A DNA stretch of 64,000 nucleotides, taken from the IMG/VR virus record IMGVR_UViG_2721755660_000001. One strand, 5' to 3'. Shown in pieces: positions 18,001-21,000 of this stretch. This stretch comes from a virus. Lineage: Duplodnaviria; Heunggongvirae; Uroviricota; Caudoviricetes. Numbering within the stretch: position 1 is the stretch's first letter; each line of letters starts with the position of its first letter. A program made the position numbers.

Positions 18001-21000
18001 AAGAGAAAGCTGGTCGCCAACGGCGTGCTGCGCGCCGTAATGAACTTAAGCCGATACGTCACTGGGTACAGATGACTCAGCGCGCCTTCAACGACTGGCG
18101 TCGCGAAATGCTGCTGGCAGCCGGTCACGGTTGCATCTCTTGCGGAACCAAGACCGCCTTTGCCTGGCATGCCGGGCATTACCGCACTACGGCCGCCGCA
18201 CCGCAACTTCGCTTTAACCAGGACAATATCTGGCTGCAGTGCTCCGCCTGCAACGTTCACAAATCCGGAAACATCGAGGCATACCGCGCCGCCCTGATTG
18301 AGCTGATTGGCGAGGAGCGCGTGCTGGCGCTGGAATCCAACAACGAAACCCACCGATACACCCGTGAAGAGCTGGATGGCATCCGCGCTAAGGCACGGGC
18401 AGATCTTCGCGCATTCAAACAGCAGGTGGCAGCATGAGCACAGAAACCGAAATTGAACTGGGCACGGTTGTCGCGTTCCCGACGAAGAATAACGACCTAC
18501 AGGACGGGCTGGTTATTCAGCGCGAAGGGCAGAAGGTTATGTGCCTGCACTCCACTGTTTGGGTGAATGAAAAAGACCGGACCTTACGCTGCCGGAAGTG
18601 CGACACGCTGATCGAACCTTTTGACTTCCTTATGACGCTCTGCGACCAGGAGTCTCGCTACATGGAGAACGTGAAATATCTCCGCCGGGAAGAAAAGCAG
18701 CGCCGTCAGAATATCGAGAAGCTCATTCAGATTGAGAAGAACGCCAAAGCCCGTATTCGCCGCGCCGGGGATAAGTCGCCACTTCCTCTCTGGCAGAACG
18801 AGAGGGTTGAAGAATGACGCGTGACCAGATTATGCGGTACCAGGCCGAAAGCGTTAAGCGCGCCAACCTGCCGCCAGTAGCAAACCACAGCCAGAACAAA
18901 ACCAACCAGCCACATAAGGAAGCCGCATGAACAGTCAGCAACTGGAATACGTACGTCAGCAGCTCATTGTGGCGACCGCAGATCTGAGCGGGGCGACGAA
19001 AGGGCAGCTGGTAGCTTTTGCCGAGAATGCGCAATTCACCGCGACGGCGCGCAGCCGGGGCCGGAAAAAGGTATTCGACAAGGATAAGCAGCGCATGGTC
19101 AACCCGGATGGTCCGCCGATGAGCGGCAGCCAGTCACGCGCTAAGGGCTCGTCTATCGCGCTGGTCAGCCCTGTGGAGTTTGGTACCGCGTCATGGCGCC
19201 GCGCCGTCCTGTCGCTGGAAGAACACCAGAAAGCGTGGCTGCTGTGGAACTACAGCGAGAATATCCGCTTCGAATACCAGGTGGCGATCACCCAGTGGGC
19301 GTGGGCAGAGTTCCGGGAACAGCTCGGCGCGAAGAAGGTGGCCGGCAAGACGATTGAGCGCCTGAAGAAGCTTATCTGGCTGGCGGCGCAGGACGTCAAA
19401 GCGGAGCTGGCGGGTAAGGATGTGTATCAGCATCAGGACCTGGCCGCCCTGTGTGGCGTTAAGCCGGATAACTGGTGTCATAACTACGCCGATTACTGGC
19501 TTGCCATGTGCGCCATCTTTAAGCGGCTTGATGGCGATTCACTCCTCTGTACTGTGAGAACACGATCACAACAAAAAGCGACTTTTTCGCAGCAGGGTAT
19601 TGCAAAAGTCAATTAAATAGCATACTTTTCATGTAAATCTGATATCTTCGCCATAGCTTTGTAGGACGACAAAGAATTAACAGCCTCGCCATCGTGCGGG
19701 GCTTTGTTTTTTGTGCTTTCTGTAAACCAAGTGGGCGTTAAAAGTTAAAAATCATTATTTACTTATTTAAAATGTGGCCTCCACTTAAAACAGAGAGACC
19801 TCATCATGAAGAATTTCCAGCTTTATGTTGGCGGCACTAACAACATCACCTATCGTTACGAAATTCATAAGATGGATGATGCTTTTAGTGTTCGGATTTT
19901 TAATGTCATCGATAAAGCACACAAAGAAGTGGGGGCTAAACTCCTTCGCTCAGTTTCATCTCACGACGTAATTGATGAGTGCGTGTCACATTACAAAAGG
20001 CAAGCGCAAGGCGTTAAGGGTTTTCTTCGCTGGCTTGGATTGTGAAAAAGTATCAGATTAAACAGGTCGCTTAGGCGGCCTTTTTTGTTTCTGCACAACA
20101 GGAAAGAGCATTTGCAGGGTTCGACTCCCTGCCGTGGGGTTGTGCCACATGATGCGAGTAATGAGTGCTCTCTCCGTTGTGGTGTAACTCAATTCCCGCT
20201 TGCGGGTTAAATGGGTAAAGTAATGCATCAACTGGCATAGCCAGCAGGGCAGGCATGATGCTAATGCTGAACCTGAGTATCGGTTCGAGTCCGATCGCCA
20301 CACACCAGAACCCACTACCTGGGATCCTTCGGCCAGAGAGCCGACATTGCCTTACCCTCATCTTCCCGGCCTGTCGCCGGGTTTTTTATTCAGGCCGCAG
20401 ACAATCAATTCCAGATGCCCCGTAGCTATCGTGTCTGACGGCCTTTTCTCAACTACCACACAGCACCCCGGACCCGGAGGTGTGGAATGCAACGTATGAA
20501 CCCAACAAATGGACACGATCTGCCGTACTGGTGGTCGGCGGCCTTGGGCCTGTTCTCTTTGCTTAGCCTGCAGGATTACGTGTTTATTATCGGCGCGCTG
20601 GTATCGGCGTTCTTCACGATAAAAACCTATTACGCAAAACGGAAAGAAGAGCGTAAGCGTATGGCTGAGGAAAGGAAACGAACCCAGCTGCTGGAAAACT
20701 ACTTATCTGATGTAGGTAAAAAACCTCACTCCGATCGTCCGGCTGCCGCCGAGGTGGTTACGGAGGCAATGCGGAGAATTTCCGGTGGCACAGTTGAAAC
20801 TGAGTAAGAAAAGCGGCGCGGCGGGCATTGTCTGCTCCGTAGGAACGATCATCGCCATTGTGGTGAATGCGGGCCATGTCAGGACTAACGAGCGCGGGCT
20901 AGAGTTAATCGGTAACGCTGAGTCTTGCCTGCGTGATCCATATGTCTGCCCGGCAGGTGTGCTGACTGACGGTATGGGTAATACGCATGGCGTAAAACTA

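Follow-up and report, generated by a model that had tools for sequence, protein, structure and literature searches.

Do the tRNA-like fragments that lie between the late-gene antiterminator gene Q and the holin gene of a lambdoid prophage mark decaying tRNA genes, or does one of them belong to a working RNA? The question is raised by a 64,000-nucleotide stretch of viral DNA (IMG/VR record IMGVR_UViG_2721755660_000001, Caudoviricetes; hereafter the window), for which an earlier reading of the sequence, the original prediction, proposed a late-operon leader with three intrinsic terminators, a small moron gene at the position where Shiga toxin (Stx) phages carry their toxin genes, and two T-arm-like motifs that do not complete a tRNA. 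The leader, the terminators, the moron and the tRNA slot follow the textbook layout of lambdoid phages. The analysis adds that, judged from comparative sequence evidence, the second "incomplete tRNA" is a complete RNA of narrow phylogenetic range, hereafter element B, for which we infer a function. With a probability of roughly 0.7, the interval from Q to the holin is the Q-controlled late-operon leader of a lambdoid Escherichia coli prophage with three accumulated cassettes, including a live tRNA-like RNA gene.

T-arm motif 1 (GGTTCGACTCC, 20118-20128) and T-arm motif 2 (GGTTCGAGTCC, 20282-20292) both fit the pattern GGTTCGANTCC, which occurs three times in the window, the third time in its true tRNA-Arg(cct), against 0.10 occurrences expected by chance; none of 100 shuffled sequences reached three. 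ARAGORN called no tRNA in the region, nor did it when introns were permitted and the threshold was lowered (20151-20330); its tRNA and tmRNA mode returned nothing there, and the Rfam tRNA model RF00005 gave no match to the region at E<=10. This check agrees with the statement that the motifs do not complete a tRNA, and the tRNA-derived homology on which the original prediction had staked itself is present in the region. The description of both motifs as incomplete tRNAs holds in so far as both are present and no tRNA was called, but motif 2 belongs to a complete conserved RNA.

The slot itself had been taken for a tRNA site, and relatives, P22-like phages and Stx phages do carry tRNA genes there (PMC7547250). 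Among 80 IMG/VR loci whose Q proteins are 88–100% identical to that of the window (hereafter the relatives), 44 have one to four tRNA genes called by ARAGORN between the leader and the lysis genes, the slot tRNAs being Asn-gtt, Thr-tgt, Arg-tct, Gly-tcc, Phe-gaa and Met-cat. The annotated order in phage L is gene 23, terminator, tRNA-Asn, tRNA-Leu, terminator and holin, and the tRNAs of Stx phage lie between tR' and stx2AB (PMC7547250).

T-arm motif 2 is the T arm of element B, a sharply bounded module of 125 nt which, by comparative criteria, is a real, complete, conserved and structured tRNA-like RNA. Its acceptor stem has seven base pairs (20178-20184 with 20296-20302, UGUGGUG/CGCCACA), with a discriminator C at 20303. 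U8 and A9 (20185-20186) lead into a D arm that begins at 20187, has GG in its loop and holds an inserted, invariant hairpin, CCCG-CUUG-CGGG (20195-20198/20203-20206). An extra hairpin of 5 bp (20232-20236/20240-20244) is followed by a long arm, which consists of a 4-bp outer stem (20245-20248/20272-20275) and a 5-bp inner stem (20252-20256/20264-20268) with the loop GAUGCUA (20257-20263). The T arm (20279-20283/20291-20295, AUCGG-UUCGAGU-CCGAU) has a 5-bp stem and a 7-nt loop. Element B shares with canonical tRNAs the acceptor stem and a T arm with a UUCRANY-type loop, and both helices covary. A canonical anticodon arm was not found in it; a 15-nt linker and the extra hairpin intervene, and the loop of the long arm reads GAUGNUR, with A33 and U37.

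Folded as a single sequence, element B reached a z-score of only -1.75, which is unconvincing alone, and the case for the structure is made by comparison. RNAalifold, applied to an alignment of 59 distinct element B sequences (A2), independently predicted the acceptor stem, the D-arm-like part with its inner hairpin, the extra hairpin, the long arm and the T stem. In a model-based alignment of 69 sequences (A3), 98.6% of cells, counted over 66 distinct sequences, form standard pairs versus 28–41% in slid-partner controls, 15 pairs carry changes on both sides, and none of 500 shuffles reached these pairing and covariation values. Covariation backs the extra hairpin together with the acceptor stem (UGUGGUG/CGCCACA, UGAGGCG/CGCCUCA and UGUGAUG/CAUCACA), the T arm (AUCGG/CCGAU, GCUGG/CCAGC, GCGGG/CCCGC and AUAGG/CCUAU) and the long arm (CAGG/CCUG, CGGG/CCCG, CGUG/CACG and CUGG/CCAG). 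In addition, a pseudoknot is probable from the aligned sequences: the linker GCAUC (20225-20229) can pair with the loop bases GAUGC (20257-20261), the pairing is kept in 99.4% of cases, and it is supported by one G-C to A-U double change in Izhakiella and ten wobble-compatible single changes.

The family is distinct from ordinary tRNAs. The covariance model of element B (R1) scored 92–169 bits on family members versus 12–19 bits on real tRNAs, which align to it over the acceptor, U8-A9, D and T regions. A 50-nt region comprising the D arm and the linker is almost invariant, even in the most divergent copy. Over the span of element B (20178-20303), Rfam 15 gave no match at gathering score and only chance microRNA-type matches at E>7, and an Rfam E-value scan of 19400-20700 returned isrJ and chance microRNA-type matches only. 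Element B is neither in Rfam 15 nor annotated in the RefSeq genomes of E. coli. Hammerhead and other small ribozymes, retron RNA and bridge or omega RNAs were considered as identities and dropped, as no core motifs, partner genes or Rfam matches were found.

Element B was found in more than 100 phage, prophage and metagenome copies, in two late-operon contexts. BLAST detected the module in some relatives only, and in Cronobacter phage ES2 it lies elsewhere, between the genes of the terminase large subunit (terL) and the portal protein. With an 18-base element B pattern, 86 IMG/VR stretches were retrieved; another anchor pattern found 4 more, and a metagenome scan yielded 24 further copies. In a set with one genome per species, copies occurred in seven species, comprising four of Enterobacter, Yersinia alsatica, Atlantibacter and Izhakiella, and the 139 bases around T-arm motif 2 were 100% identical in 3 of 5426 complete E. 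coli genomes, where nothing is annotated. In all of 79 distinct loci, element B has the orientation of the late genes; it lies in about 65 loci between Q and the lysis genes and in about 11 between terL and the portal gene, two unrelated contexts. It closes a tRNA array in 14 loci, for example Asn-Gly-Thr-Arg-B or Met-His-Gly-...-B. Considering that its 5' flank is conserved over 14 nt only and that the promoter scan listed no promoter-like site upstream, the RNA should come from the late transcript. Of 72 distinct copies, 68 are followed at a distance of about 10 or about 60 nt by a terminator-like hairpin; it is attributed to the slot, because relatives that lack element B have the same terminator module behind ordinary tRNAs as well.

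T-arm motif 1 lies in a different piece, remnant A, which consists of the D-arm-like sequence AGGAAAGAGCA, a 4-nt linker and a perfect T arm, CAGGG-TTCGACT-CCCTG (20115-20131), and has neither an anticodon arm nor a matching 5' acceptor strand. The D-arm-like sequence is very close to that of tRNA-Arg(tct). In Enterobacter phage CobraSix, the closest deposited phage relative (86% identity across 87% of the region), and in four other loci, the remnant A piece stands downstream of an intact tRNA-Arg(tct) and a spacer. CobraSix has the intact tRNA and a spacer of about 90 nt after terminator 2, and the window has a 163-bp gap at this place, between 20091 and 20092. Based on this alignment, remnant A is best read as a tRNA scar left by the deletion of tRNA-Arg(tct). 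The proposal that the motifs are tRNA leftovers therefore suits motif 1, whose intact tRNA is kept in relatives and deleted here, and fails for motif 2, which is instead part of a complete, covarying RNA. Remnant A was also considered as a second RNA gene, since together with the next 33 nt (83 nt in all) it folds well (-31 kcal/mol, z -2.1). It was treated as a remnant because it is represented by five near-identical variants only, none with covariation.

Some copies and flanks depart from the common form. The copy in locus L173 (4912-5034) has its 5' third replaced by unrelated sequence, and the copy in L161 (1739-1887) and the Izhakiella copy (L186, 2580-2729) have insertions of 14–16 nt in the extra hairpin, with the other helices kept. 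CobraSix (L001, about 2226-2320) and loci L024, L059 and L076 possess the element B flanks (the 14-nt 5' flank and the 3' flank) and the same outer helix, TGTGGTG/CACCACA, around a 55-nt interior that is unrelated to element B and has no T loop. This variant could represent either a replacement or another type of RNA occupying the same "socket"; it is nearly invariant across the four loci, so its structure cannot be judged. In the window, the 5' flank of element B, AGUGCUCUCUCCGU (20164-20177), is complementary to the D-arm-like GGAAAGAGCA (20100-20109) of remnant A, which could reflect either precursor-level pairing or coincidence.

Beyond the observed anatomy, family memberships, conservation, covariation and contexts, a mechanism can be proposed. 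A promoter overlapping the end of Q would start a short isrJ-family RNA, which without Q, as in the lysogen, would stop at terminator 1, and Q-loaded polymerase would pass terminators 1–3 and go on to transcribe the genes of the holin and the lysozyme. The moron, the dead tRNA fragment and the live tRNA-like RNA gene would be cassettes that have piled up between the leader and the lysis genes. Element B would be cut from the antiterminated late transcript by the tRNA-processing enzymes, like neighbouring tRNAs; an RNase P cut at 20178, 3' trimming and CCA addition after 20303 would release it. The released RNA would accumulate late in infection as a stable tRNA mimic and would bind some tRNA-recognising factor instead of decoding codons. 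We suggest, very tentatively, that element B founds an undescribed class of temperate-phage tRNA mimics with a tRNA elbow and acceptor end, a pseudoknotted body and release by RNase P, and that these would engage a host tRNA-binding factor as decoys or adaptors. Such a decoy might, for example, soak up a tRNA-cleaving defence nuclease, or a tRNA-modifying or tRNA-charging enzyme, during lytic growth.

Several points weigh against this interpretation. The changes that support the pseudoknot come with two mismatches. For the D stem, two registers are equally compatible and both uninformative; the canonical register, ACUC/GAGU, gives a tRNA-like D loop ending in GAUGGGUA, and the window copy has a C-A mismatch in it. 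Covariation is uninformative on three parts that hardly vary, namely the D stem, the inner stem of the long arm and the hairpin inserted in the D loop. The family is narrow (mean column identity 90%), and many compensatory cells are therefore co-inherited, not independent events. As the second anchor pattern and the metagenome copies added almost no diversity, the D-stem register and the pseudoknot remain weakly tested. Moreover, CCA is unencoded in most copies, and the terminator that follows nearly all of them fits a cis-acting role equally well. Finally, we infer the promoter, the dependence on Q, the processing sites and the stability of the RNA.

A cis-acting role is accordingly the main rival, and it is rather unlikely. 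Here element B would act on the polymerase or on the next terminator, as a processive antitermination or readthrough element like the put RNA of HK022 or the EAR element of Bacillus, and would not be set free as an RNA. The downstream terminators, found in both contexts, would suit such an element, as would its constant position inside the late operon on the sense strand without a promoter of its own, and its compact fold, with about 125 nt and a probable pseudoknot, recalls EAR. However, the terminator module belongs to the slot, as its presence after ordinary tRNAs indicates, Q already supplies processive antitermination here, and no put or EAR match appeared in Rfam at E<=10. The canonical T loop, U8-A9, the GG of the D loop and the 7+5 bp stack of acceptor and T stems are features for tRNA-binding factors, not for RNA polymerase. 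Less likely than this, and improbable in our judgement, is that both T-arm motifs are decaying leftovers of tRNA genes with nothing functional between terminators 2 and 3. In favour of this reading, about half of the relatives have tRNA genes in the slot, motif 1 is itself a tRNA leftover, a truncated copy exists in L173, and the unrelated interior in CobraSix, L024, L059 and L076 reveals that the slot is undergoing scrambling. Decay would not leave element B at full length in more than 100 copies, with compensatory changes in four helices and nearly all cells paired, nor keep it in a second, unrelated context and in four genera beyond Enterobacter and E. coli; the near-invariance of the 50-nt D/linker region in the most divergent copy is likewise a pattern that decay does not produce.

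That element B is a working but odd tRNA, which is aminoacylated, decodes and tolerates insertions both in its D loop and between its D arm and anticodon arm, appears very unlikely. Its acceptor stem, T arm and D arm are intact, it sits at the ends of tRNA arrays, and the tip of the long arm is formed by a 5-bp stem and a 7-nt loop, all in favour of such a tRNA; yet the loop GAUGNUR has A instead of U at 33 and U instead of a purine at 37, and five of its seven bases are apparently sequestered in the candidate pseudoknot. ARAGORN rejected it with introns allowed, and the Rfam tRNA model was silent at E<=10. To our knowledge, 125 nt with five helices fits no known tRNA class. We give least credence to a DNA-level site, such as a tRNA-derived attachment or recombination site for satellites or cassette exchange. 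The 3' halves of tRNA genes are classical integration targets, the module begins and ends where the tRNA-like structure does, and the slot shows strong mosaicism. Against such a site, the compensatory changes keep Watson-Crick and G-U pairs on one strand, pointing to RNA, G-U pairs such as the 46 U-G cells of the acceptor stem would turn into A-C if read on the opposite strand, and no integrase or satellite genes adjoin element B.

Among known systems, the closest analogues of the proposed tRNA mimic in kind and position appear to be RNAC and RNAD of phage T4 (the species 1 and 2 stable RNAs), and common descent is so far unsupported. These two RNAs, 139 and 119 nt long, follow immediately on tRNA-Arg, where the T4 tRNA cluster ends. 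Both belong to the late RNAs (PMC9697503), and neither has been assigned a role (PMC3014915). RNAC, like element B, has a tRNA-like acceptor stem and T arm, and it scored 17.2 bits on the element B model, which is the level of ordinary tRNAs (12–19 bits) and implies no specific sequence similarity. Because RNAC did no better than ordinary tRNAs, membership in one family is not claimed, and the likeness is one of kind and position only. Element B, unlike RNAC, has its own invariant 50-nt D/linker region and the candidate pseudoknot, and the hosts of the two differ in that T4 is virulent, whereas the phages carrying element B are temperate and lambdoid or P22-like.

Other non-decoding RNAs, such as the bacterial Y-RNA-like YrlA and the tRNA-like domain of tmRNA, also keep the module of acceptor, T arm and D loop. 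The 5' and 3' ends of YrlA form a Ro-binding stem, while those of element B form an acceptor-type stem, and tmRNA has a G3-U70 pair and a tag reading frame, neither of which is present in element B. No match of element B to tmRNA or YrlA was found with the tmRNA mode of ARAGORN or with Rfam. The tRNA arrays of phage L and of Stx phages such as 933W share with element B the slot, the orientation and the bracketing terminators; the array tRNAs are canonical and called by ARAGORN, unlike element B. The tRNAs of Stx phages are driven by a separate promoter (PMC7547250), and none was seen upstream of element B. Published in 2023, a catalogue of some 10,000 candidate RNAs from phages reports "tRNA-like" candidates in IMG/VR and might already list the element B motif (PMC10690425); a review of phage-derived small RNAs mentions no tRNA-like RNA (PMC12197685).

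The prophages of E. coli and Enterobacter that carry element B are inducible and lend themselves to manipulation, and element B offers a second, genetically tractable example beside RNAC and RNAD (PMC3014915, PMC9697503). If RNAC acts alike, it would provide a tractable lambdoid model for a 50-year-old question. Phage tRNAs matter in the arms race with tRNA-targeting defences, and a non-decoding look-alike carried at the site of such tRNA genes readily suggests itself as a decoy or adaptor. For annotation, the lesson is that tRNA fragments beside phage tRNA arrays deserve a covariation check before dismissal.

Table 1. Features of the interval from Q to the lysis genes, with positions in the window.
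Feature	Position	Strand	Basis
Q, late-gene antiterminator	18927..19616	+	PF06323, phrog_304
Putative pR'-like late promoter and candidate pause element	19600..19645	+	Read from sequence
isrJ-family leader RNA ending at terminator 1	19632..19713	+	Rfam RF01393, terminator scan
Moron cassette: promoter-like site, 79-aa open reading frame, terminator 2	19745..20091	+	Scans, phrog_21608
Remnant A, putative tRNA remnant	20096..20145	+	Alignment with CobraSix
Element B, conserved tRNA-like RNA	20178..20303	+	Comparative alignments A2 and A3
Pre-lysis leader module ending in terminator 3	20305..20391	+	Conserved in most of the 80 relatives
Start of the lysis cassette: holin, lysozyme	20487..21315	+	phrog_1350, PF00959

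The features of the interval are collected in Table 1. Q matches Phage_antiter_Q at 5.4e-83 and the Q-like PHROG family at 1.6e-99, and in the identical prophage of E. coli O22:H8 it is annotated as "bacteriophage antitermination protein Q". The lysis cassette starts with the holin gene (20487-20807; 2.8e-32), followed by the gene of a lysozyme (20785-21315; Phage_lysozyme, 4.7e-27). In E. coli O22:H8 strain 154, the arrangement of NinG, Q, open reading frame (ORF), holin, lysozyme and Rz is wholly identical to that of the window, and the RefSeq annotation of this strain lists no RNA between Q and the holin. The corresponding stretch of strain 154 is NZ_CP067426, 1.786-1.791 Mb, and strain GB089 is another lysogen with this prophage. 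The idea of an Stx-equivalent slot was supported in two respects, the Q-dependent late leader (with Q, the holin, the isrJ match and the terminators) and the tRNA slot, but not in the toxin cargo. Ahead of Q, the stretch between NinG and Q (18434-18930) contains a 127-aa ORF (phrog_1621, function unassigned) and a 38-aa ORF, in place of which CobraSix has a YlcG-like gene, another mosaic joint.

A candidate pR'-like promoter overlaps the end of Q, with the -35 element TTGCAA (19600-19605), a 17-nt spacer and the -10 element TACTTT (19623-19628). As read in the sequence, transcription is predicted to start near 19632-19636, and the -10-like TGATAT at 19640-19645 is a candidate sigma-dependent pause or Q-loading element. 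The generic promoter scan of the region did not list the TTGCAA-17-TACTTT site. Two unrelated leader types follow this Q family in the 80 relatives (loci L003-L082, first 60 nt past the Q stop), and their sole common blocks are CATAyaTTT and yTGATAT. The second, non-isrJ type begins with TAAATGAGCCATATTTGAGTCTACTTTGATATGCTGCC. The shared blocks are what would be expected of a late promoter and a promoter-proximal pause or Q-loading element, and are putatively assigned as such; this assignment leans on established knowledge of Q proteins.

The leader itself matches the isrJ model (19632-19705) over model positions 1–75 of 75 with 54.8 bits, compared with a gathering score of 37. Terminator 1 (stem 19682-19703, T tract to 19713) closes it, and in about 45 of the 80 relatives such an isrJ-like leader directly follows Q. 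The hairpin that had been predicted as a terminator is one, yet not just a terminator, since it closes an isrJ-family leader RNA. Short RNAs that end just past antitermination-controlled late promoters are found in lambda (6S RNA), 21, 82, P22 and Stx phages (StxS) (PMC7547250). By analogy, the leader is presumably a tR'-terminated transcript, the counterpart of lambda 6S RNA and StxS; the window leader, these two RNAs and IsrJ of Salmonella Gifsy-1 are alike in being short, lying at an antitermination-controlled promoter and ending at an intrinsic terminator. In Gifsy-1, isrJ sits after the anrP gene and not directly after Q (PMC4825925), as the window leader does, and because of this different location the match was read as the same kind of RNA, not as the same function. 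For Salmonella IsrJ, binding to Hfq and an effect on invasion and effector translocation have been described, as far as the citing source relates (Padalon-Brauch 2008, cited in 10.1101/787010). This reported invasion role cannot be transferred to the copy in the window.

The terminator scan recovered exactly three distinct + strand hairpins between Q and the holin, at 19682, 20064 and 20365, as had been predicted. Terminator 1 has 8 pairs, 6 of them GC (-13.7 kcal/mol, z -2.6), terminator 2 (stem 20064-20081, T tract to 20091) has 7 pairs with 5 GC (-11.8 kcal/mol, z -3.6), and terminator 3 (stem 20365-20381, T tract to 20391) has 6 pairs, all GC (-11.8 kcal/mol, z -3.3), the z-scores comparing folding energy with that of shuffled sequences. 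Over 3 kb, the scan gave 6 hairpins against a shuffled mean of 3.5 (standard deviation 1.9), a modest excess, and the support for the terminators therefore lies in placement and conservation, not in the count alone. The pre-lysis module, which ends in terminator 3, is kept in most of the relatives whatever occupies the slot. No other part of the region is shared so widely, and homologues occur in about 50 loci and also among the P22-like phages. The module is 77% identical to ST64T and L of the P22-like phages, and the hairpin of phage L that is homologous to terminator 3 (homologous stretch in the window, 20348-20470) is annotated as "terminator". The stem of terminator 3 covaries (CCCGGC/GCCGGG versus GCCAGC/GCTGGC). 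The 60 nt ahead of it are likewise conserved and could be structured.

The small AT-rich gene of the original prediction is the ORF at 19806-20045, the sole plausible ORF between Q and the holin, which lies in a GC trough of 0.355–0.40 between flanks of 0.53–0.62. Morons, as defined for HK97 and HK022, are known from lambdoid phages. Like these, the cassette in the window consists of a promoter-like site (19745-19773, TTAAAA-17-TAAAAT, predicted by the promoter scan), a single small ORF and a terminator inserted between genes that are adjacent in relatives. It occurs in about 11 of the 80 relatives, always in the same position after terminator 1. With a predicted promoter, an ORF, a terminator, a deviant composition and absence from collinear relatives, it has the sequence hallmarks of a moron, in line with the behaviour that had been proposed for it. 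From its own promoter-like site, it could be expressed in the repressed prophage too.

The protein of 79 aa belongs to phrog_21608 (1.2e-44), a family without assigned function, and its homologues form 29 clusters in Enterobacter, E. coli and Dryocola, all of them "hypothetical". No Pfam family was found for it. An AlphaFold (AF2) model built with 20 homologues (pLDDT 83.7) has four strands and one helix, and Foldseek returned nothing for it at E<0.01 in PDB and BFVD. A likeness to AcrF1 (TM about 0.4, E 0.05) was too weak to use. Pfam, PHROGs, the homologues and the fold search revealed no similarity to Stx subunits or other toxins, and a toxin-type cargo at this position is not supported. 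Just past the lysis genes, a 91-aa ORF (21900-22175, + strand) without a PHROG match lies in a second GC trough (0.335) and looks like another moron-type insertion.

Elsewhere in the window, Rfam identified a C4 antisense RNA (RF01695, 78.9 bits) adjoining an isrK RNA (RF01394, 64.8 bits) at 58718-58905 on the - strand. This is an antirepressor control module of the P1 c4/ant type and the Gifsy-1 isrK-orf45-anrP type, and it falls in a second phage-like stretch of the window. The sole true tRNA of the window, tRNA-Arg(cct) (47858-47932, - strand), is adjoined by a 406-aa ORF (46524-47744, - strand), and the interval 46524-47932 is probably a prophage end with a tRNA attachment site.

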